DNA from: Limnochordia bacterium
GTDB lineage: Bacteria; Bacillota; Limnochordia; DTU080; RSA5
Reading direction: 5' to 3'
Assembly: GCA_041686855.1 (NCBI GenBank)
Contig: JAWLDA010000005.1
Location: 203,222-267,221 of the forward strand
Length of the DNA stretch: 64,000 bases
Shown: piece after piece, positions 5,021-38,833 of the stretch
How the letters are laid out: each line of letters begins with the position of its first letter
How positions within the stretch are numbered: position 1 is the first letter of the stretch
The notes under the pieces: model-generated
Seen by the model: only the letters and a program-made list of their open reading frames with translations
Told to the model about the DNA's origin: nothing
Database searches by the model: none
Made by a program: the position numbers and the translations under genes

Positions 5021-5116
5021 GTCAAAGCCTCGGGAAGTACCGACATAATGCAAGGGTACCACGAGGTACGCGTAACCTTCAACGAGAAAAGAAAGTCCGG
5101 GAGGAGTGAGTGTTCC

Positions 5117-6079: not shown

Positions 6080-6096
6080 CGGGACTTTAGGCTCCT

Positions 6097-7173: not shown

Positions 7174-7239
7174 ACGTACGCCATACGAAACATGTGGCGG
7201 TGAGTCGGTAGCGGTAAGTCTTAAGTTGAGGTGATTTAG

Positions 7240-8295
7240 GTGACGATCCAAGAGTTGCGTCATGCGCTCTTTGACAGTGCAGTGATCCCCGCGCATCCGC
7301 TGGCGCTTACGGCTGAGCGGAAGTTGGACGAGCGCCGCCAAAGGGCGCTCTCGCGCTACTATCTGGACGCCGGAGCAGGTGGACTGGCAGTTGGTGTGCA
7401 CACGACGCAGTTCCCCATACACGACAACGGCATGCTTGAACCTGTCTTGTCGATGGCGATCGAAGAGGTGCACCGACACGAGCGCGAGACGGATCGCAGT
7501 CTCATTAAGGTCGCGGGCTTGGTCGGGAAGACGGAGCAGGCGGTACGGGAGGCCAAACTCGCCCGAGAGCTCGGCTACGACGCTGGCCTCCTGAGTGTAG
7601 CTGCCTTTAAGACGGCGCCCAACGAGGAGATTTTGGCCCACTGCCGTCGCGTTGCCGAAGAGCTACCGGTGATCGGTTTTTACCTGCAGACGGCGGTGGG
7701 CGGGCGCTTGCTCGACTACGCGTTTTGGCGCGAGTTCTTTGAGATCGAGCGTGTGGTCGCTGTGAAGGCGGCCCCCTTTGATCGGTATCAAAGCCTCGAC
7801 GTGATGCGGGCGTTGGCCGACTCGGGTCGGGCCGACGAGATCGCTCTGTATACGGGGAACGACGACCACATCATCCTCGACCTCATCGGCCAGGCGCGCT
7901 TCTCGACGCGAGCCGACGCACCGGCGGTCGGCTTTGTGGGCGGTCTCCTCGGCCAGTGGGCCTGCTTTACCAAACCCGCCGTTGAGATGCTGGCTCGCCT
8001 GCGTGAGCTGCGTTTGAGCGGGGACCCGATCCCCCAAGATCTGATCACGTTGGCGCACATGATGACGGATATCAACAGCGTTGTCTTTGACGTACGCAAC
8101 AACTTTAAGGGTGTCATCGCAGGGATTCACGAGGTACTCCGTCGCCAAGGACTCCTTGAGGGCATTTGGTGTCTGGACCCTGAGGAGGATTTGGGACCCG
8201 GACAAAATGAGGAGATCGATCGCATTTGGCGAGATTACCCGGAGTTGAGGGACGACGAGTTTATCCAGGAGAACCTCGATCGCTGGCTCTCGTAA
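7240..8295 (+). CDS. Conserved hypothetical protein, possibly a TIM-barrel aldolase-like fold
   Basis: A 351-aa ORF with good coding character, but no motif I can name with confidence. Confidence 0.4.
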   Translation: MTIQELRHALFDSAVIPAHPLALTAERKLDERRQRALSRYYLDAGAGGLAVGVHTTQFPIHDNGMLEPVLSMAIEEVHRHERETDRSLIKVAGLVGKTEQAVREAKLARELGYDAGLLSVAAFKTAPNEEILAHCRRVAEELPVIGFYLQTAVGGRLLDYAFWREFFEIERVVAVKAAPFDRYQSLDVMRALADSGRADEIALYTGNDDHIILDLIGQARFSTRADAPAVGFVGGLLGQWACFTKPAVEMLARLRELRLSGDPIPQDLITLAHMMTDINSVVFDVRNNFKGVIAGIHEVLRRQGLLEGIWCLDPEEDLGPGQNEEIDRIWRDYPELRDDEFIQENLDRWLS

Positions 8296-8299
8296 ACGC

Positions 8300-9547
8300 G
8301 TGAGGCGCGACCGTATCGCAGGGAGGGAACGAACAGTGGCGCAACTGCTCTTAGGTACGGCGGGGACGGTGATCACGCCGCCCCTCGGACTCTTTTTGGC
8401 GGGGTACGGCTTCCGAGACCGCGGTGCCGACGAGGTGTTGGATGAGATCGAGGCGCGCGTCTTTTGGCTTCAAGTCGACGATGGTACGGGCAAGCTTGAG
8501 GACGCGTGCATCATTACAGCGGACCTGATCGGGTTCGGTAAGGCGTTGACGGCGGCGTTGCGACGCCAACTCTCTGAGCGTTTCGGCTTGGCGGCGGAAC
8601 GGCTCACGTTGGCGGCGAGTCACACTCACTCCGGTCCCCAGACCTGTGAGAATATGACGACAGCGGGCGGGCACCCCGATCCTGATTATATCGCCTCTCT
8701 CCAAGAGCGGCTGATCGAAGCTGTCGGTGAAGCTCGCTCCAAGCTGCGGCCGGTCACTTTGCGCAGCGGCCTGGGTGCGCTCAGTGGGTTTGCGATCAAC
8801 CGCAGAGTGCTCGTCAACGGCAAGGCCGTCGCCGCGCCCAATCCCAAAGGGGTAAGGGACGACCAAGTGACCGCCCTACTCTTTCAAGACGCCGCCAACG
8901 GCGAAGTGGCAGCCGTACTCTACCACTACACGTGCCACCCTACCACCATGGGAAGTTACAGCGTCACAGGCGATTACCCGGGAGCGGCACGTCGCCGCCT
9001 GGAGAAGGAGTTTAGCGGCGCGGCATGCGGCTTCTTGCCGGGCTGCTTCGGAGATGTACGGCCGGCGTGTACACTTGTCGGCGGAAAGCAGTTTCGGCGC
9101 GGTACCCCCCAAGATGTGGCCGCATTCGGCAACGCCCTGGGTGATGAGGTCGCTCGGGTGGTCTACAGCATCGCCGACTCTGAGGCCGCGTTGCATGAGC
9201 CCCACATTTCAGGGGCGCGGACGGATCTACAACTCCCACTGGTCGATGGGAGCAGCGCCGAACTAAGCGTGCAGCGGTTGGACTTCGCCCCTGATCTCGC
9301 ACTCGTCGCCATGGGCGGCGAGATTTGTGTTGATTATGGCCACTGGATCAAGGCGATGCGGCCAGGTAAGACGACCCTCCCTGTCGGCTACTCCAACGGG
9401 TTGGTGGGCTACATCTCTTCCGAGCGCATGTTTCCTGAGGGCGGATACGAACCGGACACATCGATTCGCCCCTTTAATCTACCGGCGCCATTCGAGCCGC
9501 GCATCGAGGGCCTGCTTTTGGAGGCCGTCAAAGGCCTTCTCGCGTAA
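8300..9547 (+). CDS. Neutral/alkaline ceramidase N-terminal-domain-like protein
   Basis: The pattern ITPPLGLFLAGYG ... DLIGF ... ASHTHSGPQ matches the ceramidase N-terminal domain signature. Confidence 0.45.
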   Translation: MRRDRIAGRERTVAQLLLGTAGTVITPPLGLFLAGYGFRDRGADEVLDEIEARVFWLQVDDGTGKLEDACIITADLIGFGKALTAALRRQLSERFGLAAERLTLAASHTHSGPQTCENMTTAGGHPDPDYIASLQERLIEAVGEARSKLRPVTLRSGLGALSGFAINRRVLVNGKAVAAPNPKGVRDDQVTALLFQDAANGEVAAVLYHYTCHPTTMGSYSVTGDYPGAARRRLEKEFSGAACGFLPGCFGDVRPACTLVGGKQFRRGTPQDVAAFGNALGDEVARVVYSIADSEAALHEPHISGARTDLQLPLVDGSSAELSVQRLDFAPDLALVAMGGEICVDYGHWIKAMRPGKTTLPVGYSNGLVGYISSERMFPEGGYEPDTSIRPFNLPAPFEPRIEGLLLEAVKGLLA

Positions 9548-21081: not shown

Positions 21082-21176
21082 TTTCCAAATCCCCTCCCCA
21101 CAAGTGTTAACGATTGGTAGGCTCTCCGGCGCGGGGGTGGGTATGCACGGCAAGATCTGACAGGCGAGATGGATCG

Positions 21177-25489: not shown

Positions 25490-27273
25490 TAGGCCGAATT
25501 CGCTGCGTATTGCCGAGCGTAGAGTCGTCGGTAGGTCCCGTCTTCGTTAATCAGTTGTTCGTGGTTGCCGAACTGGGAGATGCGGCCGCCTTCGAGTACG
25601 CAGATGTTGGTTGCGTCGCGGATCGTCGAGAGTCTGTGTGCGATGACCAACGTGGTGCGCCCCACCATCAGCTTTTGGAGCGCTTCTTGAATGAGGCTCT
25701 CGGTCTCGACGTCGACGGCTGAAGTGGCCTCGTCGAGAATGAGGATCGGGGCATCCTTGAGGATTGCTCGAGCGATGGAGAGCCGTTGCTTTTGTCCCCC
25801 GGAGAGGCGGACGCCGCGCTCACCGATATGAGTGTCGTACCCTTGCGGCAGCTTAGCGATGAACTCGTGCGCGTTGGCAACCTTAGCGGCCTCGATGGCA
25901 TCCTCGGGGCTCTTGCCCGGATTGCTGTAGAGGATGTTGTCAAGGACGGTGCCGTTGAACAAGAACGTGTCCTGCAGCACCATACTGATGTTGTGTCGCA
26001 GGGACTGAAGGTTGATCTCCTTGAGGTCGACGCCGTCTAACGTAATGCGCCCGGCCGTCGGATCATAAAAGCGGGGAATGAGGCTCGCAACCGTACTCTT
26101 GCCCACACCGGTCGGCCCGACCACCGCGAGTGACTCGCCCGGTTTGATAACGAATGAGATGTCGTGCAGGACCGGCACGTCTTCGCTGTAGCCGAAATCG
26201 ACGTTGTGGAACGCGATCTCACCCTCGACGTTTTTGAGCGTGCGGGCGTCCTTCGCCTCTTTCACGTCGGACTCCACGACGAGGATGTCCGAGACCCGCT
26301 CGGCCCCGGCGAGTGCCATTTGTACCTGCTCGTTCATCCGGGCCAACAACATTATGGGTTGGTAGAACATACTGAGGTACAGAAGGAAGGCGACCAAGTC
26401 TTCGATAGGCAATGAGCCGCGCAGCGCTGCCATTCCACCAAAGTAGATGATGATAATGGTCCCCATCGTACCGACGAATTCGACGGATGGGTGATACACG
26501 GCCATGATCTTGAGGGCGCGCAAAAGGTCGGCCGTATACCGGCGTGAGCGGTTGGCGACGCGCTTCCCCTCGTGGCGCTCCCGAGTAAAGATGAGGATCT
26601 CTTTGATGCCGGAGATATTGTCCTGCAAGATCGCGTTAAACTCGGCGAGCTTCTCCTGGGCCGCTTTAAAGGCGGAGCGCATGTGTTTGCTGAAACCGAG
26701 GACGACAAAGAGGAGAAGGGGAATCGGAAGCAGCGTCAGTAGCGCGAGCTCGACATTGAGGTAGAGCAAAATACCTGTAATGCCGACGATCAGGAACGTG
26801 TTGACGATCAGGTCCGGAATGTTGTGCGCCACCAACGGCTCAATGTGGTTGGTGTCGTTGACGAGTCGGGACATGATCTCACCCGTCTGCTTGTCGTGGT
26901 AGTAGCGGAGTGAGAGCTTCTGCAGGTGCTGGTAGACAAAGACTCGTAGATCGCTGACGAAGTTCCACGCCATGACGTGAGCGACGTAGCTCATAAAAAA
27001 CTGGCAGATGCCGCGCAGGATGTGAGCGACGGCAAAGATTCCGGCCAATAGGCCGATACGCCCGGCGAGGCCGCTCGCGGCGAGGCGCTCGGCAAAGTCC
27101 AAGCTGAGGGCGAGCGCGCCCGCCTCCTCGGATTGGAGAATCATTAAGACCTCACGAATGATCCAGGGACCAATCAAGTTGAGGGCCGTGACGCCCAAGG
27201 TGGCCAGAATCACAACGACCATGTGCTTGCGGTATGGGCGGAAGAATGCCCGCAGTCGCCATAACGCTTCCAT
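25489..27273 (-). CDS. ABC exporter, fused transmembrane domain and ATPase (MsbA-like)
   Basis: Six TM helices, Walker [10 protein letters not shown], the LSGGQKQR signature and Walker [11 protein letters not shown]. Confidence 0.85.
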
Positions 27274-27417
27274 TTGGCAACCTCCTAAAATACCCTTTGA
27301 ACTTTAATTAAGTTCCATTCGACGTCGGAGCCCTTCGGGCCTTCGAATAGAGGGAAGTGCAGCCCAGCGCTCGAACTTCAAGTGACGGGTGCGCCCAACG
27401 TGTCGAACGATTCACAG

Positions 27418-27489
27418 AGTAACTACGATAGTAACTACGATAGTAACTACGAGAGTAACTAAGAGTGTAACTGGAAGAGCAACTGTGTT
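27418..27489. repeat. 12-bp tandem repeat (AGTAACTACGAT), about six increasingly degenerate copies
   Basis: Read directly from the sequence. It lies in the divergent promoter region between the ABC exporter and the MFS gene. Confidence 0.8.
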
Positions 27490-27531
27490 AATGAGGGCGG
27501 CTCTCTCCTAAACGAGGTGGACACCACTTCC

Positions 27532-28725
27532 GTGACTGACGACAATCGCCGATCGACCCGTACCTTACTCGTTGCCATTGCCTGCTTTTGGGCGTCACTG
27601 TACCTCTACGTTCCCATCCTTGCGCCGTATGCCGAAACCCTCGGCGTTCCCATAGCCTGGGTGGGAATCATCATTGCGTCGTACGGTTTCTCGCAACTCG
27701 TCTTGCGCATTCCTGTTGGCTTGTGGTCCGACCGACTGGGACGCCGGCGCCCCTTTATTGTAGCGGCTTTTGTCGCATCGGCCCTTTCGGGCCTCCTGTT
27801 CGTCTTCTCCGGCGGATTGGGGGGGCTGTTGACGGCGCGGGCCCTCTCGGGCGTCTCCGCCACCATGTGGGTTGTGATCACCGTCTTGTACTCCAGCGCT
27901 TTTCCACCGGAGAAGGCAGGTTACGCGATGAGCATCGTCACCTTTGTGACGACGGTGACGCAGCTTTGTTCCACGCTTGCCGGAGGGTTGATCGCCGAGA
28001 TATGGGGATGGAAGAGTCCCTTTTGGGTGGCGGCCGCAGTCGGCGCCGTCGGCTTGGCTCTCACCTTGCGTCTGCGAGAAGTGAACACCCGCCCCTTGGG
28101 TCTCTCCGTGCGCGCCCTGGCGGCGGTGGGGAGGGAGCCGTCACTCCTGTTGGTCTCCGCTCTCGGCGCCTTATACCAGTTTAATATGTTTGTGACGGCA
28201 TACGGATTTACCCCCAATTACGCCGTCGCCCTGGGTGCGTCCAAGGCGGACCTCGGCTGGTTGGGACTCGTCTCGACGTTACCGATGGCGCTCGCTTCAT
28301 TGGGGAGTGGGAGCCTCTTTGCCAAGCGTATGAACGAGGGGCAAATGGTGACGACGGGGTGCGCGCTTACCTGCGTAGGCACCGCATTGATTCCTGTTTG
28401 TTCCTCACTGTGGGCGCTGTATGCAACCCAGGCTCTCGCAGGTTTTGGACGAGGCTTGGTCTTTGCGGTCTTGATGGGTCTTGCGATTCGCACTGTTCCG
28501 ACCGAAAAGCGTGCGACAGCCATGGGCTTCTTTCAATCGCTCTACGCAATCGGCATGTTTGCCGGGCCGGCCGTCGCAGGAGTTACAGCCGACGCATACG
28601 GGTTGAACGGCGCCTTTTACACAGCGGCGGCGGTGATGGCCGTGGCTACGTTGGTCGCGGCCGGATGGCTGACCCGTACCTTTAACAAGACGATGCACTC
28701 TCCAGAAAACGTCGTCTCCTCATAA
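27532..28725 (+). CDS. MFS transporter
   Basis: Twelve TM helices. GTG at 27532 has GAGGTGG 11 nt upstream. The ORF opens at GTG 27517, which lies within that RBS. Confidence 0.7.
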   Translation: MTDDNRRSTRTLLVAIACFWASLYLYVPILAPYAETLGVPIAWVGIIIASYGFSQLVLRIPVGLWSDRLGRRRPFIVAAFVASALSGLLFVFSGGLGGLLTARALSGVSATMWVVITVLYSSAFPPEKAGYAMSIVTFVTTVTQLCSTLAGGLIAEIWGWKSPFWVAAAVGAVGLALTLRLREVNTRPLGLSVRALAAVGREPSLLLVSALGALYQFNMFVTAYGFTPNYAVALGASKADLGWLGLVSTLPMALASLGSGSLFAKRMNEGQMVTTGCALTCVGTALIPVCSSLWALYATQALAGFGRGLVFAVLMGLAIRTVPTEKRATAMGFFQSLYAIGMFAGPAVAGVTADAYGLNGAFYTAAAVMAVATLVAAGWLTRTFNKTMHSPENVVSS

Positions 28726-28769
28726 ACCCGGACGGTGCACCCAGAAAACGTCGTCTCCTCATAAACCCG
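28702..28769. repeat. 29-bp direct repeat x2 duplicating the 3' end of the MFS gene
   Basis: CCAGAAAACGTCGTCTCCTCATAAACCCG occurs twice, 10 bp apart. Confidence 0.8.
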
Positions 28770-28890
28770 CCGGTCGTGTATGATGGGTAAGGCGGCGCAG
28801 TCGCCGCCTTATACGGAGACGAAATGCGGAGACGAAATAGGCAATCGAAATAAGCAACCGAAATACGGAATTAGAAAGCGGGTGGCGGGC

Positions 28891-29835
28891 ATGGGACGCC
28901 CCCTTAAAGTGTTATCGATCGCCACGGTGATCGGGATGTTTCTCGTCCTTTTAATGGGCGCTCTCGTAACCAAATCGGGCTCCGCCGAAGGGTGCGGCGC
29001 GTCGTGGCCGCTATGCGACGGCAAACTGCTACCAGCGGCCAACATTCACTCGATCATCGAGTACAGTCACCGTGCTGTCTCCGGAACGGTCGGCCTCCTC
29101 GTCCTCGCTTTGACGGTGTGGGGGTGGCGGCGCTACCCGGGACGGCGTGACGTACGCGCCTTGCTCGTGACGGCGTTGATCTTTATCGTCATTCAGTCGC
29201 TGCTCGGTGCGGCCGCTGTCTTGTGGCCGCAGCCCAAGCTGGTGCTGGCGCTACACTTTGGCATATCACTCACAGCGTTTGCTGCTGTCTTGCTACCAAC
29301 GATCATCATGTTTCAGCTCGAACGGGGTGAGACTCACCGGCAAAAGCCTGTCAGCTCACGCCTTTGGGCATGGTCTTGGGGCGCTCTCGCGTACGTCTAC
29401 GCCGTGGTGTATTCAGGGGCGTACGTACGCCACACCAACTCGCACCTCGCCTGTCTGGATTGGCCGCTCTGCAACGGCGCCTTGATTCCGGAGTTATCCG
29501 GGGGTGTCGGTATTCAGTTCTTTCACCGAGTGGCGGCCGGTGTGGCACTCCTCGTGTTGCTGGGGTTGGTGCGCGTGGCTTCCCGGGAGAGAGCGGAGCG
29601 TCCGGACCTCTACCGCGGTGCCGTCGTGGCGGCAGCGCTTGTGGGGTTGCAAGTGTTGAGCGGGGCTCATGTGATCTTGACGCACTTGACGATGACGGCG
29701 ATGATGCTGCACAGCGCGATTGTGACCAGCTTGTTCGGCGCACTCAGCTACCTCTGTCTCCAGGTCTCCAGGGAACCGGTCGCTCGGGATCCTAAACGGC
29801 ACGCGCGGATAGGAGGGGAGCTTCATCGACCGTAA
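28891..29835 (+). CDS. ctaA: Heme A synthase
   Basis: CtaA/COX15-like TM topology with a conserved Cys pair (CGASWPLC) and His residues. ATG at 28891 follows GGGTGGCGGG. Confidence 0.75.
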   Translation: MGRPLKVLSIATVIGMFLVLLMGALVTKSGSAEGCGASWPLCDGKLLPAANIHSIIEYSHRAVSGTVGLLVLALTVWGWRRYPGRRDVRALLVTALIFIVIQSLLGAAAVLWPQPKLVLALHFGISLTAFAAVLLPTIIMFQLERGETHRQKPVSSRLWAWSWGALAYVYAVVYSGAYVRHTNSHLACLDWPLCNGALIPELSGGVGIQFFHRVAAGVALLVLLGLVRVASRERAERPDLYRGAVVAAALVGLQVLSGAHVILTHLTMTAMMLHSAIVTSLFGALSYLCLQVSREPVARDPKRHARIGGELHRP

Positions 29836-29896
29836 AGCGCTCCTTGCCGCGCTGACCACTGTCCTGTTCTGGTCGTCCGCATTTGCCGGTATTCGG

Positions 29897-30730
29897 GTGG
29901 CGATCGAGGCGTACGGTCCTGGCCACCTGGCGCTCATCCGCTTCCTCTCCGCTTCGGCGCTCTTTGGAGTGTACGCTCTCGTGACGCGGATGCCGATGCC
30001 GGCTCGGCGGGACTGGCACCGCTTCGCCTTGCTGGGCTTCTGCGCGGTGACGATTTATCACACGGCGCTGAATTTCGGCGAGCAAACGGTTCCGGCAGGG
30101 ACGGCGAGCCTCATCATCGCGACGGTCCCGGTCTTCACGGCGATCTTCTCCCGGATCTTTTTAGAAGAACGACTGACGGGCGTGGCGTGGGCCGGCCTCT
30201 TTTGGAGCCTCTTTGGCATCGCGGTGATGACTTTTGGCGGAGAGCGAGAGGTCGGTTTCACGCTCGGAGTGTTTTATGTCGCTGTGGCCGCTGTGTCGGG
30301 CGCGATTTATACGGTCTTCGTCAAACCGCTTCTGGCTCGTTACCCCCCGGTAAACAGCATGGCCTACGTGACATGGGCCGGGACTCTGCCACTGTTTCTC
30401 TTCGCTCCGGGCTTCCTTCAGACCCTGAGCGCAGCTCCGATCGAATCGACCCTAATCGGCGTGTACATCGGCGTCTTTCCTGCTGGGATCGCTTACGCCT
30501 CGTGGAGCATCGCCCTCTCACGCCTCCCGGTGAGCCGAGTCGCACCGTTTATGTATTTGGTCTCCCCCCTGGCCATTCTGTGGGGGTGGCTGTGGGCGGG
30601 TGAGGCGCCTACAGCCATGACATTGGTAGGCGGCTTTATTGCCCTCTCCGGGGTGCTCGTCGTGCAGCTCTGGGGGCGCCGTCCGCTGAGCGCCCCCTCC
30701 ACGAGCCGCAGCGCCAATGTGAGGGCCTAG
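29897..30730 (+). CDS. EamA/DMT-family transporter
   Basis: Ten TM helices with an EamA repeat. The frame is open from 29813 and preceded by a strong AGGAGGGGAG, but no canonical start precedes GTG 29897, so the true N-terminus may be longer. Confidence 0.6.
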   Translation: MAIEAYGPGHLALIRFLSASALFGVYALVTRMPMPARRDWHRFALLGFCAVTIYHTALNFGEQTVPAGTASLIIATVPVFTAIFSRIFLEERLTGVAWAGLFWSLFGIAVMTFGGEREVGFTLGVFYVAVAAVSGAIYTVFVKPLLARYPPVNSMAYVTWAGTLPLFLFAPGFLQTLSAAPIESTLIGVYIGVFPAGIAYASWSIALSRLPVSRVAPFMYLVSPLAILWGWLWAGEAPTAMTLVGGFIALSGVLVVQLWGRRPLSAPSTSRSANVRA

Positions 30731-30744
30731 GGACTCAAGCAATT

Positions 30745-30812
30745 CAGTGACTCGAGCGGTCTAGCGAATCTAGCGAATCAAGCGATCCAGTGACTCAAGT
30801 GGTCTAGCGAAT
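30745..30812. repeat. 25-bp direct repeat x2 (AGTGACTCRAGYGGTCTAGCGAATC) with short internal repeats
   Basis: Read directly from the sequence. It lies at the 3' end of the convergent DMT and D-TA genes. Confidence 0.75.
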
Positions 30813-31877
30813 CATCCCCCGAGCGGCGACGGGCCAAACCTTCTCCACGTTGGCACCTCGAACACCGATCAACTCGTCGTGAAGATTGGTGACGACACAG
30901 GTGTGGTTGGGGATGATACGAATCACTTCGCCCACCTCCGGCTTGCGCTCCCCTTCCGGGAAGCGGACGTACCCGTGCTCCTCGTTGAGGCGGTAGATGA
31001 CGGCGTCGGGGTACTCGACGATGCGCCCGTGGCCCTTGAGGCCCAGCGTGTCCGCAGAGAGGCTCTTGGAGCCGGCGTCGATGATCGCTCGATCAGCCGT
31101 CGGCCGACTCACCACAGTGGCGCGAATGTGCATGGCACAGTCATCCCACGTAGCGGCTCCTTTAGCGACACACGAGCGGTCGTAAAAGATGTAGGTACCG
31201 GCCCGGTGCTCCGTCGCTCCTGGGATCTGAGGGAGCAGCGAGACGGCCGGCGTGCCCCCGGTGCTGACGATCTGGGCATTCAATCCGACACGATCTAATG
31301 CACGGTACGTCTCTTGTAGAAAACTGGCGGTCGCGTCGGTGATCGGGTAGGTCATCAGCCCCGCGAAACGCAAGTTGGGTAGGCCATCGACAAATTTGCC
31401 CAACTCAGCGGTCTCCTCCGGGGTTTGCGTCCCGTTGCGACCACTCCCGGTGTCACACTCCACGAGGACCGGCAACTCTTCTGCAGTGTCGCGCATGCTT
31501 TCCGACAGCCCTCTAGCTACATGAGCGTTGTCACAGAGGGTTAGTAGCCGCCCGCGTGTCGCCGCCTCCCGGAGGCGGTCCAGCTTTGCGGCGCCCAAGA
31601 TATTATAGGTAAGAAAGATGTCCCCCAAGCCCGCTGCCTGCATGACGGCCACTTCGCCGAGCTTTTGGCAGGCAATCCCTTGTGCGCCCGCCGCCACCTG
31701 CATGTGAGCGATCTCCGGAATCTTGTGCGTTTTGATATGAGGGCGGAGCGCGACGCCTGCGTTGTCACAAAGCCGCTGCATGCGAGCAATGTTGGCTTCC
31801 ATGACGTCGAGATCGATGGTGACGACCGGGGTGTCGTTTAAGTCAACGCTATCGCTTATGTGGGTTTTGGCATTCAC
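30804..31877 (-). CDS. PLP-dependent D-TA-family enzyme (paralog of 783..1907)
   Basis: The HIKTHK motif and the same domain order as the first copy. Confidence 0.7.
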   Translation of the reverse strand: MNAKTHISDSVDLNDTPVVTIDLDVMEANIARMQRLCDNAGVALRPHIKTHKIPEIAHMQVAAGAQGIACQKLGEVAVMQAAGLGDIFLTYNILGAAKLDRLREAATRGRLLTLCDNAHVARGLSESMRDTAEELPVLVECDTGSGRNGTQTPEETAELGKFVDGLPNLRFAGLMTYPITDATASFLQETYRALDRVGLNAQIVSTGGTPAVSLLPQIPGATEHRAGTYIFYDRSCVAKGAATWDDCAMHIRATVVSRPTADRAIIDAGSKSLSADTLGLKGHGRIVEYPDAVIYRLNEEHGYVRFPEGERKPEVGEVIRIIPNHTCVVTNLHDELIGVRGANVEKVWPVAARGMIR

Positions 31878-32052
31878 TTAAGAATGGCACATCCTTTCGC
31901 GTGGAGCACCTTTACCGTATTGCTAAGTGGGGTAGAGCTTCCGGCATGGGGCGTCAGATCCTGCGTGCTCCTAGAGATAACGGAGTCTTGGATATGGGGT
32001 GGCACGCCTAATCCTATGCCGATGGCGCCTGTGGTCTATGATCGACACTTTA

Positions 32053-32126
32053 AGAGTCGAGAGTATTAGTCTAGGACTCGAGAGTCTAAGGTCAATAGTC
32101 CACGGTCAATAGTCTACGGTCTATGG
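32053..32126. repeat. Short tandem repeats including 14-bp GGTCAATAGTCYAC x2 plus a partial copy
   Basis: Read directly from the sequence. Confidence 0.75.
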
Positions 32127-32193
32127 CGGTTGCACTTTGGCGGCACCCATCCCGGATTGCCCCCCTCGGAAGGCCCTTCCTGGCTTTCACCCG

Positions 32194-33231
32194 CTACGGA
32201 GCGCTTTGGGCCGCTTTTATGTAGCGCTGGCTACAGTGCTTCAGGTACTGGATCGTCTGCTTAAATCCCCGCAATACCCTCATTGGCAGCTTGTCTCCAA
32301 TTTTCCTACGCAAATTAGTGAGCGAAAGGTCCTCGGCGTGGACGACGACAAGAGCGATCTTTTTGTCTTTACAGATCTGCCGCTTGAGGGCGTCGCGTTT
32401 TCGTTGTGCGATCACTTCCTGTTTTGAGAAGCGTCCCGTCGCGACGTAATGCTGCCTTCCGTTGAACTCGAACGCCACGCGATCCACTGGGTAGAAACGG
32501 TCGAGCTCCATCCGCTCTCCAGTGGATGGATTCTCAAGGAAATTCGGTCTAGCGCCGTCCTCGCACTCCTGTGTGTCGACAATTAGTGACAGGCACGCCC
32601 GCAAAAGCCCTTCCCCACTGTACTTCGACTCCCCCAGGCCCCTTGCGACCTCCGCTTTATACGCTTGGTCGGCGTGTTGAAGTCGAAACCAGAGGGACGC
32701 GCGCCGGTTCTCTTGCCTGATCGCGATCCAGTGTGCCGCGGCGAGGGCGCGAATGGCACGCTTCACGGTCTTTATGTGTAAACCGGTCTTCTTACTGAAT
32801 TCAGCCCACTTGAAGAAGCCCGTCAAGCCATTGAATTCAGACGTCGCCTGCAGCAGCCCGTAACACAGAAGCGTCTGCGGGCGCACTGTATGGGACGCTC
32901 GGATCAAGTCCACCGGAATCTTTACGACAGATGGGTTGTCCAGGGCGGGAAAGCCAATTCGCCAGCGCCGCTTCCCGGAAGAACGCTGACGATAGGAGAC
33001 GAGCCAACCCGAGGCTACTGCACTTTTTAAGGCCACATACACGGTGGAACGGGCCAGGCCGGTGCGCTTTGCGAGACGATCCGGCATGTGAGACCGTTGT
33101 CGTTTGTGCGTTGCGTCAAAGCGCAACCTGATCCAGAGCAACTTCGCAGCGGGCGTCAACGACCGAGAGAGCAATAGGGCGAGTGGAACGTCAACCGTCC
33201 GCACCTGCAACCGCAACTGCACCCGTGCCAC
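32194..33231 (-). CDS. Protein with two winged-HTH domains and a C-terminal DUF559 / Vsr-like (PD-(D/E)xK-type) endonuclease domain
   Basis: Two HTH-like segments: LAKRTGLARSTVYVALKSAVASGWL and FSKKTGLHIKTVKRAIRALAAAHWI. The C-terminal LDRFYPVDRVAFEFNGRQHY...RKRDALK...VVVHAED region matches the DUF559/Vsr pattern. Confidence 0.5.
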   Translation of the reverse strand: MARVQLRLQVRTVDVPLALLLSRSLTPAAKLLWIRLRFDATHKRQRSHMPDRLAKRTGLARSTVYVALKSAVASGWLVSYRQRSSGKRRWRIGFPALDNPSVVKIPVDLIRASHTVRPQTLLCYGLLQATSEFNGLTGFFKWAEFSKKTGLHIKTVKRAIRALAAAHWIAIRQENRRASLWFRLQHADQAYKAEVARGLGESKYSGEGLLRACLSLIVDTQECEDGARPNFLENPSTGERMELDRFYPVDRVAFEFNGRQHYVATGRFSKQEVIAQRKRDALKRQICKDKKIALVVVHAEDLSLTNLRRKIGDKLPMRVLRGFKQTIQYLKHCSQRYIKAAQSAP

Positions 33232-33424
33232 CTCCTCGTCGATCTACTCGTTGGCCTTCGGGATGAATCGCTTGGTGATGGTGCGCTCGAACCGCTGTAG
33301 ATAACCTCCGCCACTTCTTGCACAAACATTTGTTCGCCAGGCCAATAGAACCCTTCCCGTGACGCGATCCGAGGGTGATGTAACACAGAAAACTTAATAG
33401 CAAAGCGGCTTCGACGTCCCAGTG

Positions 33425-34230
33425 GTCCGAAAAATGCCCGGTACATCCTCGGCGTGGTCCGGTGGAGGCTTCTGTCCACAGTGCTGAGCAGAAAAGTCCT
33501 GCTCAACGAGGGTGACCTCGCGAACCGAAGCAATGGATGGCGGAGTTGGGCCCCTAGCGGGAACTTCTCGGACAGCGAAGGTACGGTCGTCGGGCCAACT
33601 GCCGTCGGTCTCAGATTTGCCGCTGCAACGGGCGCCGACCCACAGGCGTCCGAAAAATGCCCGGTACTTACTCAGCGTGGTCCGATGGAGGCTTCTGTCC
33701 ACAGTGCTGAGCAGAAAAGTCCTGCTCAACGAGGGTGACCTCGCGAACCGAAGCAATGGATGGCGGAGTTGGGCCCCTAGCGGGCACTTTTCGGACAGCG
33801 AAGGTACGGTCGTCGGGCCAACTGCCGTCGGTCTCAGATTTGCCGCTGCAACGGGCGCCGACCCACGGGCGTCCGACACACCGGCGTTTGACTCAGCGGG
33901 TGTCCGACCCCTACGGGCGCCGACCCACGGGCGTCCGAAAAATGCCCGGTACATCCTCAGCGTGGTCCGATGGAGGCTTCTGTCCACAGTGTTGAGCAGA
34001 AAAGGCCTGCTCAACGAGGGTGACCTCGCGAACCGAAACAATGGATGGCGGAGTTGGGCCCTTAGCGGGCACTTTTCGGACAGCGAAGGTACGGTCGTCG
34101 GGCCAACTGCCGTCGGTCTCAGATTTGCCGCTGCAACGGGCGCCGACCCAGCGAGTGTCCGAGCCGCGGGTGTCCGAACCCTACGGGCGCCGACCCAGCG
34201 GGCGTCCGAGCCTCGGGCGTCCGAGAAAGA
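33425..34230. repeat. Three tandem copies (223, 285 and about 298 bp) of a roughly 90%-identical unit, apparently non-coding; each unit carries a conserved 7-8 bp hairpin
   Basis: Units begin with GTCCGAAAAATGCCCGGTAC at 33425, 33648 and 33933. Unit spacings are not multiples of 3 and reading frames differ between units. The internal hairpin is TGAGCAG-N7-CTGCTCA. Short GGGYGTCCGA motifs recur at the unit junctions. Confidence 0.85.
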
Positions 34231-34540
34231 ACCGCATAAGTGCGCCAGAGGCGCAACGTATTTATTCAAACGAAATCTGCGTGCTAAACCCCCGATTCTG
34301 TTGGGGAAAAGTGGAACGTTAAACAAAGTGTGCTCGCCTTAAGCAAGCTGCAATCGCTGATCGGACGAAGCCGGGGCACGCGCTGTGAAACGGAATGACA
34401 CGGCACAAAGCGGAGGCTACGTGGTGTGGATCGAAACTCGTGCCAACAAACGTGGATATGTCTCAACCTCCGCATGGGTGTGGAGCTTGGGCGGACTTGG
34501 GACTGTACGTGGGTACGATGCCGCACTCCATTTGGTGGTC

Positions 34541-34622
34541 TTGGAAGGCTTGGAGGATTTAAGGGAAATGGAGGATTTAAGGGGATTGGAGGACTTAAGG
34601 GAATTGGAGGTCTTGAGGTACG
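34541..34622. repeat. 18-bp tandem repeat x4 (TGGAGGATTTAAGGGAAA, degenerate)
   Basis: Read directly from the sequence. Confidence 0.8.
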
Positions 34623-34769
34623 AATGAATTAATCGTGGGACGGCCGCAATGAAGGCCGAAGCCTCACCTGTGCGAGCGAGGATCTCCGGCCTCCGTTCCA
34701 CCACGCTTTCGCAGTTACGCTATTCGGTTAGAGCGCAATGAGCGCTACTGTAGCAACAGCCCATCGACG

Positions 34770-34855
34770 CAACACCGCAACACCGCAACATCGCCCCAAC
34801 CCCACATCGCCCCAACCCCACATCGCCCCAACCCCACACCGCTACAACCCACAAC
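34770..34855. repeat. 8/16-bp tandem repeats (CAACACCG x2; CCCCAACCCCACATCG x3)
   Basis: Read directly from the sequence. Confidence 0.8.
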
Positions 34856-34856
34856 G

Positions 34857-35630
34857 TTACGGCGCCACGACGTACCAGACTTCGCCGACGCCTTGGCCGG
34901 TCGTGTCGCCCGGCTTCTCGTCGTTGATCCACCCGTACAGCGGCATGCCGTTATAGGCGATCTGGCGTGACCCGTCCTCGCGGGTGATTACGCTGATCGC
35001 ATCGGGGTCGACGCCCTCACCAGCCACCGGCTCACCATAGGCAATCAGCGTTGGTGGCCAGTTGCCCGCGCATCGGCCGGAGCAGTTGCTGACGCCTTCT
35101 TCGTCCCGGGTGTACAAATAAAGGGTCATTCCGGTACCGTCAATGAGGTATTTGCCGAGATTCGCATTCTCTGCCACGCGCAGGGTGGGGCTCGGGTTAA
35201 CGACGTACCACACATCACCCACACCTTGGCCGGTGGTATCTCCGGGTTTGGCGTCCCGTACCCAGTAGTAGAGGGGAATGCCGTTGTAGGTGACGTGCAG
35301 CGTGCCGTCGTCGGCGCGCTTCACCACGTCGAGCTCACCTGCGAGGCCGTCGGGCAGCATGAGCTGGTCCTCAGACTCAACGGTAAGCGCGGGCCAGTTG
35401 GCCAGACAGCGACCGCTACAGTTGCTGACGCCCGGTTGATCCGGGGTGTACAAATAGAGCGTGAGGTCGTCGGGACCGATCAAGTAGTGGCCCAACTCGG
35501 GTGAGTAAGCCACCTTGACTGTGGGCTCCGTCGCGCTGGCAAGGGCCGGCAGGGCCAACAGAACGAGGGTTGCTACTGCTAAGAGGAGAACTCTGGCACG
35601 GGTGGTTCGCAATCCAATCCGGTATCTCAT
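34857..35630 (-). CDS. Secreted protein with two internal repeats (secreted repeat of unknown function, COG4315-like)
   Basis: A signal peptide, then two repeats of about 110 aa each containing SNCSGRC, WP and DTTGQGVG motifs. ATG at 35630 follows GGAGGCG. The ORF extension to 35702 was rejected. Confidence 0.6.
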   Translation of the reverse strand: MRYRIGLRTTRARVLLLAVATLVLLALPALASATEPTVKVAYSPELGHYLIGPDDLTLYLYTPDQPGVSNCSGRCLANWPALTVESEDQLMLPDGLAGELDVVKRADDGTLHVTYNGIPLYYWVRDAKPGDTTGQGVGDVWYVVNPSPTLRVAENANLGKYLIDGTGMTLYLYTRDEEGVSNCSGRCAGNWPPTLIAYGEPVAGEGVDPDAISVITREDGSRQIAYNGMPLYGWINDEKPGDTTGQGVGEVWYVVAP

Positions 35631-35734
35631 CGATTTATCGCCTCCGAAAATGTGGTCCTTCATCCGGAGATACGGAGGAAAGGCAGGAGGTGGATCACCC
35701 AAAGTCTGACGATTTGTAAAAGCGTGGAGGGTGC

Positions 35735-36604
35735 GTGGTGCAGCAACACTCTGAAATCGTATGGAACGAAATCGTTGCAGGCGCTTTTCAGGAGTACCCG
35801 ATCTTCGTTCTTCACGCTCCGTGTCGACGAGCGCGGGTGACCCGATTTCATCGTCAACCCGGTCTGGAGCTTCACTTCAGCCACAGTGGACGGGGATCGT
35901 TTCACTTAGAAAATCGCGTCCTGCCGCTCGTCGGCCGTCATGTAGTGATTCTGGGCGGCTCCCAACCCCATCAGGTGTTTGCAGACGTCACGTCGGGGTA
36001 CAAGCGGACGGTCGTATGCATCGACACGCCGGTCGTAGAGATGGTGCGGAGCTTCTTCCCTGACGGTCAGACGCCTGAGTTCTTACGCACAGGGAGCGCG
36101 TCGGAGGCTGTGGTACCCTGGAGCCTTTGGCGCCGGCTGAGTGGGTACCTTGCTCACATTCACGATGAATACCGAGGGCGTGAACGCGGGTGGGAGCAGT
36201 CTATCTTTGCGTCGGTGGTACAACTGATCGTCTTGCTCGAACGGGTAAGGGTGAATCCCATTAAGGAGGAACGACCGGAGGATCTCGTCTCTCGCTGTCT
36301 CGACGTGATCGAATCGCATCTGGATTCTGACATCAATGCTGAGATATTGGCCCGGCTGTTGAACGTCTCGCCGAAGCACCTCTCACGTGTCTTTAACCGC
36401 GCCGTGGGTTGCGGCATCCGCCACTACCTCAAGCGCCGACGTATCGAAGTGGCAAAGAGAATGCTCCTCGATGATCGGGAGGTAAGTGTGCAAGAGATCG
36501 CCTTTCTTTGTGGATTTAAAGCGCTCTCGCATTTCTGTCGCTCCTTTCGCGAATTGACGGGGACGACACCGACTCAATTCCGACAGCCTGAACGCGGCGA
36601 CTAA
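35735..36604 (+). CDS. AraC-family transcriptional regulator (N-terminal cupin-like domain, C-terminal HTH)
   Basis: C-terminal tandem HTH with the AraC signature (IAFLCGFKALSHFCRSFRELTG). Confidence 0.75.
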   Translation: MVQQHSEIVWNEIVAGAFQEYPIFVLHAPCRRARVTRFHRQPGLELHFSHSGRGSFHLENRVLPLVGRHVVILGGSQPHQVFADVTSGYKRTVVCIDTPVVEMVRSFFPDGQTPEFLRTGSASEAVVPWSLWRRLSGYLAHIHDEYRGRERGWEQSIFASVVQLIVLLERVRVNPIKEERPEDLVSRCLDVIESHLDSDINAEILARLLNVSPKHLSRVFNRAVGCGIRHYLKRRRIEVAKRMLLDDREVSVQEIAFLCGFKALSHFCRSFRELTGTTPTQFRQPERGD

Positions 36605-36723
36605 GCAGTGTCTAACTTGAGGTAAAGAGATAACTGGTGAGGCGGTTGGCAGACAAATGAAGACGGTTGGGTCGTGCTATAGTCGGTTCAAAGGTTAGGC
36701 AAAGGGGATGGGTAGATTTGCGG

Positions 36724-37998
36724 ATCTTGGAACCCTCAAGGCATATTCCGGTCGCCGGCGAGTACGATGTCGTCGTCTGCGGCGGCGGACCTGCAGGTGT
36801 GTCGGCCGCCGTTGCGGCGGCACAGAACGGGGCGAAGACACTCCTCATTGAAGGGGAGGGATGCCTCGGAGGGATATGGACGGCCGGTCAGCTCTGCGTC
36901 ATCCTCGACGCGGCGGGCAAGGGCGGTCTCATGCATGAGTTCGAGAGCAGGCTCAAGAGTCACGACGCGTACCTTGTCAAGTCCGGTCGGAGCAAGTACA
37001 CCTACGACGTCGAGGCAATGAAGTACATCTTGGATACGATGTGCGCCGAAGTGGGTGTCGACGTTAGACTGCACACACGGGTGGTCGCCGTGAACCGGGA
37101 TGGTGAGCGCATCACCTCGATTGTGACAGAGAGTTATAGCGGGCGCGAGGCGATCCGAGCCAAGATGTTTGTCGAGGCGACCGGGAACGGGCAAATGGCT
37201 GCGTCGGCCGGCTGCGCGTTCGACGTAGGGCACCCAAAGACCGGGCAAACGCAACCGGCGACACTGATTGGAATCATAAGTGGCGCCCCCGCCGATGAGC
37301 CGGGTACCCGCAGTATGGACGAGAAGCTTGCGTTTTTGCGACTCCTCCAGTCGGTGGGCTTTGAGCCGTCGTACCGAAAGCCGTCGATGTGGCGACTCCC
37401 CAACCCCGAGCTCTGTTGTCTGTCGGTGCACCACGCCTACGGCGTGCCGTGTGATGACGCCAAAGCCATTACGAAAGCGACCATCGAAGGTCGTCGCCAG
37501 CTCAATCAAGCCGTTCAGGCGTTGCGGCAGCTCCCGGCGTGGCGCAATGTCCGTCTCGTCAGCACGGCAACTCACCTCGGGATCCGTGAGGGACGGCGCA
37601 TTCGGGGACTCTACTACCTCGACGTCGATGACATTCAAAACGGGACGCGCTTTGACGACGGTATCTGTCTCGTTCGCTTCGGCGTCGACATTCACGCGGT
37701 CACGATGAACGACGATGACCGGCAAGAAGGGTACAGCCAAGGGATCAAGGTGCGGCCGTACAACATACCTTTGCGTTCCCTGATCGCTAGAGATGTGAGC
37801 AACCTTGCTCTGGCGGGGCGGTGTGTCAGCGGGGACTTTTACGCGCACGCATCGTACCGCGTAACGGGGAACTCCGTTCCGATGGGAGAGGCTGCAGGGA
37901 TTGCTGCCGCCATGTCGGCCGAAGCCAGTGTCGCGTTGCGAGATCTCGATGGCGGACGCGTGCGACAAGCGATGCTCTCGCGCGGGTACGAGGTTTGA
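36724..37998 (+). CDS. FAD-dependent oxidoreductase
   Basis: YDVVVCGGGPAG dinucleotide-binding motif near the N-terminus. TTG at 36724 has AAAGGGGATGGG 12 nt upstream. The ORF opens at TTG 36667. Confidence 0.6.
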   Translation: MLEPSRHIPVAGEYDVVVCGGGPAGVSAAVAAAQNGAKTLLIEGEGCLGGIWTAGQLCVILDAAGKGGLMHEFESRLKSHDAYLVKSGRSKYTYDVEAMKYILDTMCAEVGVDVRLHTRVVAVNRDGERITSIVTESYSGREAIRAKMFVEATGNGQMAASAGCAFDVGHPKTGQTQPATLIGIISGAPADEPGTRSMDEKLAFLRLLQSVGFEPSYRKPSMWRLPNPELCCLSVHHAYGVPCDDAKAITKATIEGRRQLNQAVQALRQLPAWRNVRLVSTATHLGIREGRRIRGLYYLDVDDIQNGTRFDDGICLVRFGVDIHAVTMNDDDRQEGYSQGIKVRPYNIPLRSLIARDVSNLALAGRCVSGDFYAHASYRVTGNSVPMGEAAGIAAAMSAEASVALRDLDGGRVRQAMLSRGYEV

Positions 37999-38027
37999 CC
38001 GTCAAGCAAAGGAACATCCTCAAGCCA

Positions 38028-38054
38028 CTGCAAAAGTAACCCCGGAGGCGTGGC
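38028..38054. terminator. GC hairpin between convergent genes (candidate bidirectional terminator)
   Basis: Stem AACCCCGG / CCGGGGTT. An A-run precedes it on the plus strand, which gives a T-run for the minus-strand gene. Confidence 0.4.
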
Positions 38055-38119
38055 CCCCGGGGTTACTTCGGCATTCGGCGGGGCTTGCGTGGTCGATAGT
38101 CACCCTTCGTTACTGTTCG

Positions 38120-38557
38120 TTACTGTACGATGAGTGTGCCCACCATGCCGCTGGCCGTGTGTCCGGGAATATCACAGTAGATCTGGTACTCTCCGGCCTT
38201 GTCGGGCGTGAAATTAACACGAATCGTCTGGTCCGGATTGTAATCCTGATCCACGCCAAACTCGTCGATGGAGATATTGTGGGCGATTGACCCGCTATTC
38301 GCAAGGATGATTTCCACGGGCTGTCCTCGCTGCACCGTCACTTCGGATGGCTCAAAGTAAAACTCGCCGCTGTCCATTTCGATCGTCTGGGTTTGTTGAC
38401 CGCCACCTTGCTGTTGGGGCTGGTTGCCGCCGTCGTTTGCTCCGCCGCCACCGCCACCACCTCCGCCTCCGCCACAAGCCGTAGCGACCAAAGCGAGGAT
38501 GAGCACGGTAAGCAAAAGCCAGAGTTTGTTGTTGTTTCCAGGTCTCGTAAGCCGCAT
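38120..38557 (-). CDS. Cupredoxin (type-1 blue copper protein), probable lipoprotein with a Gly-rich linker
   Basis: C-terminal copper ligands in YCDIPGH...M, plus an upstream His. A signal peptide ends in ATAC, followed by a poly-Gly linker. ATG at 38557 follows AGGAGGAGGT. Confidence 0.65.
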   Translation of the reverse strand: MRLTRPGNNNKLWLLLTVLILALVATACGGGGGGGGGGGANDGGNQPQQQGGGQQTQTIEMDSGEFYFEPSEVTVQRGQPVEIILANSGSIAHNISIDEFGVDQDYNPDQTIRVNFTPDKAGEYQIYCDIPGHTASGMVGTLIVQ

Positions 38558-38833
38558 GTGTACCTCCTCCTTCAGATGGTAGCTTGGAGCGCGACCGCCA
38601 AAATCATGTGCACTCTGACCATACCAAACCTGTGGAAAGAAGATCCAGGGGAAGTTAACCCAAAGAAATGGTGACATTTGCCCCTTAACGAGGCCAGGAA
38701 GGGCTTTCTTATGCTTATCATGAATTGACGAGAGTGATCCACGATCGGCTGGCACTCACCCATGATCCGTTTGTTTGTGATCCGTAATCGGCTACAGTCG
38801 CTGCTTTATTCGGGCATTTTGGAGGTTGGTCTC

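Follow-up and report, generated by a model that had tools for sequence, protein, structure and literature searches.

Two roles are known for nucleases of the Vsr fold: some nick DNA in mismatch repair, and one rare class serves as homing endonucleases carried by introns. In the latter class, that of the EDxHD enzymes, the active site of I-Bth0305I comprises D196, N208, H213, D222 and E170, which correspond to D51, H64, H69, D97 and E25 of Vsr (PDB 3R3P; PMC3239194). These enzymes are the closest known proteins to the product of a gene that we describe here from a Limnochordia bacterium, encoded on the reverse strand of a 64,000-nt stretch of contig JAWLDA010000005.1 (positions 203,222 to 267,221; assembly GCA_041686855.1), to which we refer as the window throughout. 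The gene product joins a Vsr-fold nuclease domain to two winged helices, and the gene forms, together with an SOS-type box and the long tandem repeat upstream of it, a ~2.2-kb module that is duplicated in the genome. Enzyme genes beside arrays of repeated elements are familiar from other systems: in integrons (intI with attC) and REPtrons (RAYT with REP), arrays of hairpin elements accompany an enzyme that is dedicated or under LexA control, and in type III toxin-antitoxin systems tandem repeats of ~34-36 nt stand before an endoribonuclease of the ToxN/AbiQ fold, with a terminator between the two.

Like the EDxHD enzymes, the family to which this protein belongs has the same E/D/N/H/D catalytic set, including the Asn that replaces His64 of Vsr (D244/N257/H261/D280 against D196/N208/H213/D222), and an N-terminal DNA-binding region of the helix-turn-helix (HTH) type, and its nuclease domain has relatives in phages, some of them labelled as homing nuclease or endonuclease. 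Unlike them, the family genes are free-standing in bacterial chromosomes rather than placed within a group I intron or an intein, encode two full winged helices of the HTH_36/initiator type where the EDxHD enzymes have NUMOD motifs, and are multi-copy, with a conserved upstream module comprising the SOS-type box and arrays of hairpin elements; no match to 3R3P was found at the sequence level. With the group formed by Vsr, DUF559, DUF2726 and MTES_1575 the family appears to share the motif D-x10-E-x-(D/N)-G-x-x-H ... D-x-x-(R/K), and weak Pfam similarities, none at threshold, connect the family protein to DUF2726 and a viral relative to MTES_1575. Unlike Vsr, it has two added winged helix-turn-helix (wHTH) domains, and the Zn site and intercalating Trp residues of Vsr were not identified in it. 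Vsr partners a Dcm-type cytosine methyltransferase and recognises T:G mismatches; as no methyltransferase is found among the checked neighbours, the protein is functionally not to be counted as a Vsr repair enzyme.

The tandem winged helices in the N-terminal 185 residues and the adjacent repeated DNA are shared with replication initiators such as RepE, Pi and lambda O (Pfam HTH_36, PHROG 270), from whose iteron systems the locus differs by its nuclease domain, its chromosomal multi-paralog setting, its 149-nt units with inverted arms and the lack of a relative on the 72,556 plasmids searched. The resemblance to the logic of integrons and REPtrons is one of analogy only, and consists in an enzyme gene beside imperfect inverted-repeat elements with conserved ends, variable interiors and strand-biased pairing and, for the integron integrases, in an SOS-type box in the promoter of the enzyme. 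Unlike in those systems, the enzyme is a Vsr-fold nuclease, with no tyrosine recombinase or HUH transposase found in Pfam, NCBIfam and structure searches, no cassette open reading frames (ORFs) lie between the elements, and the elements were not seen to be dispersed, none occurring in 114 kb away from family genes. From ToxIN, finally, the locus differs in units of 223-285 bp, in the Vsr fold, in having no toxin match in PADLOC and in having no terminator between array and gene.

Domain architecture and active site of the protein

The first-pass annotation, made from the sequence and a list of ORFs, had described the gene as an ORF of 345 residues with two HTH-like segments and a DUF559/Vsr-like region after them. 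The ORF is present as claimed, and LDRFYPVDRVAFEFNGRQHY, RKRDALK and VVVHAED are all found in its translation. Its GTG at position 33222 is a more likely start than the GTG of the 345-aa frame, because the recorded product (P0001, 342 aa, 100% identical to the window protein) begins there and is preceded by a Shine-Dalgarno-like GAGGAGG, a feature that recurs as AAGGAGG or GAGGAGG at the equivalent position before two paralogous genes (L018 and L114).

In the resulting protein of ~342 aa, two wHTH domains of the kind seen in replication initiators and HTH_36 form the N-terminal part, and after a helical linker comes an endonuclease domain with the Vsr fold (Table 1). The first HTH segment is matched above cut-off by Pfam HTH_36 (residues 51-77), the second by several weak Pfam HTH families (residues ~144-173), and an AlphaFold2 model built from a 37-sequence alignment (pLDDT 92.7, pTM 0.85) places helix-helix-helix-strand-strand units, corresponding to winged helices, at residues 12-92 and 102-184, followed by a helical linker, an alpha/beta domain at residues 224-311 and a terminal helix; both of the proposed HTH segments are borne out by these results. 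The PHROGs database assigns the N-terminal half to replication-initiator families and residues 237-306 to families labelled homing, HNH or intron-encoded nucleases. A Foldseek match to RepE54 spans 226 columns at probability 1.0, but with an E-value of 0.01.

Invariant in the family alignment are D244, R245, E255, N257, G258, Q260, H261, Q276, D280 and K283, and D225 is conserved at ~90%; the set D244, N257, H261, D280 and E255 is invariant across 37 sequences of 38-100% identity. By order and spacing, D244, N257, H261 and D280 correspond to D196, N208, H213 and D222 of I-Bth0305I, and by way of that enzyme D244, H261 and D280 are the equivalents of Asp51, His69 and Asp97 of Vsr. An Asn in the position of N257 is also found in I-Bth0305I, an active homing endonuclease, and is therefore not an inactivating change; from this correspondence of motifs we infer that the protein is an active nuclease.

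Of the earlier DUF559/Vsr assignment, the part concerning the fold, a Vsr/DUF559-like one of the PD-(D/E)xK type, is retained, and the part concerning the Pfam family is not: DUF559 (PF04480) was absent even at E<=10, both for the full protein and for the isolated C-terminal domain, and the sole C-terminal Pfam match was to DUF2726 (E 0.12; 12.5 bits, where the cut-off is 24.7). No Pfam model covers the nuclease domain, for which just the weak matches to DUF2726 and MTES_1575 were obtained. Searches of PDB sequences with the protein and with the family profile returned wHTH repressors only and no nuclease, NCBIfam gave nothing meaningful for the protein, and PADLOC gave weak wHTH matches only (Csa3, mad1), with no defence system assigned.

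The module, its hairpin element and its promoter region

The genome contains the gene in at least three paralogous copies. In the short-read assembly GCA_041685055.1 these are P0001 (L001), P0004 (L018) and P0003 (L114), ~80% identical to one another and each in an unrelated genomic context. Similarity between the window, L018 and L114 extends from ~34388/34369 to ~15-20 nt beyond the stop codon (~32175), with nothing further shared, and this bounded segment, common to three loci, is therefore a duplicated and maintained unit made up of the gene and 0.55-1.15 kb of upstream DNA. Between paralogs its noncoding part is 65-83% identical, against a nucleotide identity of ~82% in the coding part. 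The long repeat beside the gene belongs to the gene's own module and is not there by coincidence. At the far end of the module, an nhmmer profile of the distal block matched only the window, L018 and L114, that is, its own source sequences. In GCA_041685055.1, contigs end 43, 660 or 767 bp upstream of the three paralog genes (L001, L018, L114), and several metagenomic contigs likewise stop at or near the family gene; the shared upstream elements probably break short-read assembly near the paralogs.

Tandem Repeats Finder (TRF) reports the long repeat as a 223/285-bp array at 33425-34162, which consists of three 149-nt elements and their spacers. Each period in the window comprises one such element, a ~63-nt spacer and a variable run of 15-bp sub-repeats, and it is the sub-repeats between the second and third elements that make the period there 285 rather than 223 bp. 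L018 and L114 each hold one copy of a sequence related to the repeat unit of the window, and L021 has the same layout, with a 15-bp sub-repeat array in the analogous place that differs in sub-repeat sequence. With an element profile seeded from the three window copies and the L018 copy and iterated with nhmmer, we found the 149-nt core 28 times across the window and the loci fetched; the inclusion of L114 brought the number to 29. Every one of these copies is located no more than 3 kb from a family gene, in 103 kb of sequence, and none was found in 114 kb of farther sequence, including the rest of the window. In the close subfamily, which we define by at least 45% identity, 25 distinct loci have 400 bp or more of sequence upstream, and 13 of these show 1-4 tandem copies upstream of the gene and in its orientation. 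Homologues recur beside long-period tandem repeats, and the 149-nt element is conserved beside family genes in other genomes. The first-pass annotation had named as grounds for its refutation the lack of a DUF559/Vsr fold and homologues that never have repeats beside them; neither is what we see.

The gene-proximal copy has GTCCGAGAAGTTC... as its 5' arm, TTGAGCAGG...TTT at its centre and GGGCATTTTTCGGAC as its 3' arm. In an alignment of 23 copies, what is conserved is a 5' arm GTCCGAAAAGTGC and a 3' arm G(A/C)GCACTTTTCGGAC, which form 13-nt inverted arms with 11 invariant columns, and a centre (C)T.TAGC(A/T)GG...TTT, the remaining interior being saturated with changes. At minimum free energy (MFE) every copy folds with a terminal stem of 12-18 bp that closes a multibranch interior. 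Across the 13-pair arm stem 87% of cells are paired, the arms have a covariation score of 0.231, where shuffles score 0.164 and none of 500 reaches the observed value, and G.U pairs outnumber A.C mismatches 38 to 15, which points to better pairing on the element-sense strand; as the copies are related to one another, this evidence from covariation and strand is modest. RNA folding of single units was no better than that of shuffles (z -1.35 and -0.70), and RNAalifold recovered the terminal stem only, with no conserved interior structure.

Long-period arrays are also found upstream of members of the distant subfamily (35-40% identity), in L005/L049, L006/L050, L052 and L074; over the full range of that subfamily (35-42% identity) no upstream k-mer is shared. 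In L074, ~3.5 upstream units of 208 bp (1-760) each end in a terminator-like hairpin, GCCCGCACGTGGG-N11-CCCACTTGCGGGC, followed by a U-run on the gene-sense strand, and a related hairpin with a U-run stands after the gene itself (1969-1987). The L074 array accordingly resembles the 3' flank of the gene repeated several times over.

Between the elements and the gene lies the promoter region, with a palindromic SOS-type box of the Cheo/LexA pattern, CGAACAAATGTTTG, for which this is the only exact match within the 64-kb window. The pattern GAAC-N4-GTTY occurs in 26 of the 28 close-subfamily loci, 53-189 bp upstream of the coding start as aligned by tblastn, and in 6 of the 45 distant-subfamily loci, against a background of 0.036 per kb. 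Aligning 12 upstream regions, we obtained the order TGTTACATCA - ~17 nt - AGAAGGAT - ~12 nt - CGAACAAnTGTTYG. A scan for sigma-70 promoters and terminators gave nothing convincing near the gene, and no sigma-70 consensus was recognised within the conserved block itself. The Cheo box CGAACRNRYGTTYG is the LexA site of Bacillus and its relatives, and also of Actinobacteria and Dehalococcoides; in several loci the palindrome fits this consensus at every constrained position, although the consensus may not be that of the host. The elements stand upstream of the promoter/SOS-box block and are therefore unlikely to be the gene's leader. A sequence resembling an element arm beside the SOS box of the window was dismissed as a chance occurrence, as it is not conserved in the paralogs.

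An SOS-type box was also seen away from the family gene. In L006 (= L050), from a Bacillota metagenome-assembled genome (MAG), a UvrA-like ORF of 2037 aa with three GVSGSGKSS motifs (2237-8350) runs divergently from a distant family paralog, and a perfect Cheo box, CGAACATATGTTTG, lies ~285 bp upstream of it (8635-8646). Among the promoters of recA, lexA, uvrA, uvrB, ruvB, dinB and dnaE2 that were sought in the fetched loci, only this uvrA promoter of Bacillota was found.

Table 1. Features of the gene, its module and the flanking DNA (positions in the window; (-), reverse strand)
Feature	Position	Strand	Basis and remarks
ORF	32194..33231	(-)	345 aa, GTG start; probable true start GTG 33222, giving 342 aa
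wHTH domain 1 (residues 12-92), HTH_36	32956..33198	(-)	Pfam 6.9e-8; phrog_270 'replication initiation protein' 2.3e-10; model
wHTH domain 2 (residues 102-184)	32680..32928	(-)	weak Pfam HTH, residues 144-173; phrog_391/1032 replication-initiator matches; model
Vsr-fold nuclease domain (residues 224-311)	32299..32562	(-)	
Shine-Dalgarno-like GAGGAGG	33231..33237	(-)	8 nt before GTG 33222; read from sequence
Palindromic Cheo/LexA-type SOS box CGAACAAATGTTTG	33323..33336	(-)	~100 nt upstream of start
Conserved promoter-proximal block TGTTACATCA (33376-33385) ... AGAAGG(G/A)T (33350-33357)	33350..33385	(-)	12 upstream regions aligned
Hairpin element copy 1 (gene-proximal), 149 nt	33425..33573	(-)	nhmmer E 1e-30, seeded profile; MFE fold with terminal stem
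Hairpin element copy 2	33648..33796	(-)	nhmmer E 5e-33, same seeded profile; fold
15-bp sub-repeats (ACGGGCGTCCGACCC-like), between elements 2 and 3	33851..33938		TRF
Hairpin element copy 3 (distal)	33933..34081	(-)	nhmmer E 3.5e-32, same seeded profile; fold
15-bp sub-repeats distal to element 3	34137..34225		TRF; alignment
Distal conserved block	34219..34388	(-)	alignment; shared only by this genome's paralogs
Whole module: distal block, sub-repeats, hairpin elements, promoter region, gene	~32175..34388	(-)	common to three paralogs
14-bp tandem repeat x2.3	32090..32121		TRF; just outside module 3' boundary; flanking, not conserved
18-bp array x3.4	34550..34610		TRF; outside 5' boundary; flanking, no similarity to any locus
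16-bp array x3.9	34772..34850		TRF; outside 5' boundary; flanking, no similarity to any locus

Short repeats, surroundings and family

The 3 kb around the gene had at first been described as consisting otherwise of tandem repeats. Every repeat listed there was recovered by TRF, and the region is repeat-rich rather than made of repeats only: they cover 58% of 33232-34856, 4.3% of 26001-32193 and at most 0.7% of the remaining window. The role proposed for the 14-, 16- and 18-bp arrays is not supported, as these arrays fall outside what the paralogs have in common and, from one paralog to another, differ entirely in sequence; each of the other two paralogs has a 14-15-bp array 45-100 bp outside a module boundary, again of unrelated sequence (L018 1758-1806; L114 183-229). 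Unrelated short tandem repeats, with periods of 12-43 bp and 2-5 copies, are present in the majority of the intergenic gaps at 21-35 kb of the window (at 21176, 27063, 27416, 28814, 30727, 32090, 34550 and 34772), and almost none are present in its regions 1-20 kb and 35-64 kb. We regard this regional enrichment as real, and a view of the tandem repeats as mere genome-wide background was revised, since in the window they are confined to 21-35 kb. Over more than 80 loci, tandem-repeat coverage is 9-12% in the 1 kb upstream of the family gene, 7% in the 500 bp downstream and 1-2% farther away.

Two ORFs that cross the long array, one of 310 aa (33394-34326(-)) and one of 276 aa (33512-34342(+)), were rejected as coding: neither has a Pfam match, and a period of 223 bp puts successive units in different frames. 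High G+C content is the likely origin of such artefacts, which a gene caller might annotate.

The genes around the module, within ~9 kb towards lower coordinates and ~10 kb towards higher ones, encode a D-TA/alanine-racemase-like enzyme, EamA, CtaA, MFS, ABC, ILVD, Lipoprotein_15, AraC, FAD oxidoreductase, cupredoxin and PolA proteins. The absence of an integrase or transposase, remarked on in the first-pass annotation, is confirmed for these neighbouring genes, and no partition or structural genes and no methyltransferase were seen among the neighbours that were checked. Rfam gave no match (at gathering thresholds over the whole window, and at E<=1 over 31800-35000), and no tRNA or tmRNA was found; with neither an Rfam intron nor a host gene that it interrupts, the gene stands alone among chromosomal genes. 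The nearest named relatives of PolA come from Chloroflexota and Armatimonadota MAGs (57-65% identity), and those of the D-TA protein from Armatimonadota MAGs (62-67% identity); judged by these relatives, the host would probably be an Armatimonadota-like bacterium. A second D-TA/alanine-racemase-N-like paralog is encoded at 783-1907, 30 kb from the one beside the nuclease gene (30804-31877).

The gene sits in a segment that varies between genomes. In a related contig (L119; PolA 71-74% and D-TA 66% identical), the D-TA gene directly neighbours polA across a gap of 284 bp (7717-8001), and in the window they are separated by 6.9 kb (31878-38761), which hold the module and the genes for Lipoprotein_15, AraC, FAD oxidoreductase and cupredoxin. 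The contigs of the closest relative end 96-185 bp before the junction in this empty-site synteny comparison. The window also differs from L119 in having an extra EamA gene between D-TA and CtaA.

The family is unnamed and occurs in uncultured Armatimonadota-like and Bacillota genomes. A word-indexed search yielded 87 relatives with 36-100% identity, among which the sole name is 'helix-turn-helix domain-containing protein [Bacillota bacterium]' and no name refers to a function. In an exhaustive profile search, 328 cluster representatives, the majority of them full length, were recovered at E<=1e-30 and 2121 at E<=1e-10; counted in clusters at 50% identity, the family size is ~330. For the paralogs P0002, P0005, P0006, P0007 and P0040 no record was found. 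A literature search for DUF559 or Vsr-like domains with LexA, SOS or winged helix returned nothing about the family. No relative was found on 72,556 plasmids and no full-length relative in 50,697 phage records, the phage records and IMG/VR viral contigs holding the nuclease domain only; phage records and families label this C-terminal domain as homing nuclease or endonuclease. Marked by the motif 'FEFNGxQH', the nuclease domain is found (in the viral contigs L099-L113, and in L009) alone in phage proteins of ~150 aa and as part of fusions with repeated treble-clef Zn-ribbon/CapR modules, one such fusion coming from an IMG/VR contig that bears the label GVMAG. It is also found in single-wHTH proteins of bacterial MAGs labelled Ignavibacteriales and Bacillota. 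This Vsr-like domain appears to be a widespread nuclease domain family outside Pfam coverage.

A candidate partner in cis and the competing explanations

We give an even chance to the explanation that the protein is a damage-inducible, homing-endonuclease-like nuclease whose partner in cis is the hairpin element. LexA would repress the gene, and DNA damage would induce its transcription; the tandem winged helices would bind the conserved arms of the element, probably in the form of a hairpin extruded on the element-sense strand, and the Vsr-type domain would then nick or cut at or near the element. The module may in this way act as a free-standing, homing-endonuclease-like unit, either selfish or recombination-promoting, and repeated break repair at the site could give rise to the variable number of elements and to the unrelated short repeats at the module edges. 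A more specific version, to which we attach a low probability, is an SOS-controlled system in which the nuclease, guided by its wHTH domains, nicks single-stranded DNA hairpins exposed by damage, which also lifts the repression by LexA, and so brings about local recombination, expansion or contraction of the array and copying of the module to new sites; if true, such nicking would be a functional analogue of attC/IntI or REP/RAYT.

Several observations weigh against the main explanation. About half of the close-subfamily loci are without the element, three distinct loci have elements 250-400 bp downstream of the gene and inverted, and one copy stands upstream of an unrelated LacI-type gene, while the upstream repeats of the distant subfamily differ in sequence and architecture or are missing. 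Repeats make up 6.5% of the remaining intergenic gaps up to 6 kb from family genes against 7.7% of the adjacent gaps, as estimated with a crude ORF mask, and with those gaps nearly as repeat-rich the short repeats cannot be tied to the nuclease. No pair of empty and filled sites was found for the module alone, L119 differing by the whole 6.9-kb segment, and the palindrome could be the protein's own operator instead of a LexA site.

The gene might, then, merely reside in a repeat-prone variable region, with no functional link to a long repeat that is neutral junk duplicated alongside it, a possibility suggested by the short tandem repeats in many intergenic gaps at 21-35 kb of the window, by the gaps in related loci that are as repeat-rich as those beside the gene and by the variability of the polA to D-TA region between genomes. 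We regard it as very unlikely: the arms and centre of the element are conserved among hosts whose family proteins are 50-67% identical, with the interior saturated, all 29 copies are gene-linked, and between paralogs the noncoding and coding parts of the module show about the same degree of conservation. If the repeats do matter, the place of the gene beside them and the matches of its N-terminal half to HTH_36 and PHROG initiator families could also mean that the locus provides an integrated plasmid or phage with its origin and rep gene, the repeats being iterons; a replication-initiator-like iteron binder was among the possibilities named in the first-pass annotation. This is the least likely of the rival explanations, and to our mind a far-fetched one, given the want of a full-length relative among the plasmids and phage records searched, the ordinary chromosomal neighbours without partition, integrase or structural genes, and the presence of at least three paralogs per genome in unrelated contexts. 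The unit, moreover, is a 149-nt hairpin-bounded element and not a direct iteron of 17-22 bp, and the structural matches to initiators, at a Foldseek E of 0.01, are weak and extend to many repressors of the wHTH kind.

A partner made of RNA is a further possibility, with the elements as tandem small-RNA genes or a processed array, transcribed in the element sense, and the protein binding or cleaving the RNA. The ToxI repeats upstream of ToxN and the RAP-domain proteins, in which a Vsr-like fold acts on RNA, offer loose analogues. The terminal stem of 12-18 bp around a multibranch interior in all copies, the better pairing of one strand (G.U over A.C, 38 to 15) and the terminator-like hairpins with U-runs that end the 208-bp units of L074 on the gene-sense strand would all suit such a partner. 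The arms, however, are conserved in sequence and not in pairing alone (11 invariant columns), which is more typical of a protein recognition site, and one unit folds no better than its shuffles (z -1.35), with no conserved interior in RNAalifold. Neither an Rfam match nor a promoter or terminator of the elements was found in the window, the position of the elements upstream of the promoter/SOS-box block makes a leader improbable, and the winged helices resemble those of DNA-binding initiators and repressors; we consider an RNA partner unlikely. Quite unlikely, in our judgement, is an autoregulated transcription factor or nucleoid-type binder, whose wHTH domains would bind the palindrome as their own operator, the element arms or both, and whose Vsr-like domain would dimerise or sense. 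At the sequence level the protein matches HTH families only, and the palindrome is common in the close subfamily and scarce in the distant one (6 of 45 loci), of whose hosts at least one, a Bacillota MAG, has the motif before uvrA, a distribution that fits an operator travelling with the protein. It is difficult to reconcile with a purely regulatory protein that the full D, N, H, D and E set, which matches a DNA-cleaving enzyme, is invariant over 38-100% identity, and with a private operator that the palindrome agrees with the Cheo consensus at all constrained positions in several loci.

The family described here, a sizeable unnamed one (~330 clusters) in poorly studied phyla, joins the Vsr catalytic core with winged helices like those of initiators, has several copies per genome and travels with an SOS-type box and hairpin arrays. 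The module probably also accounts for the breaks in short-read assembly just upstream of the paralog genes. The conserved 13-nt arms are a candidate binding site, and the family could yield sequence- or structure-specific nickases. If the proposed link between the nuclease and the hairpin element holds, the family would be a new class of enzyme among the few systems that act on structured repeat elements, and it would tie the SOS response to repeat dynamics in Armatimonadota-like bacteria.

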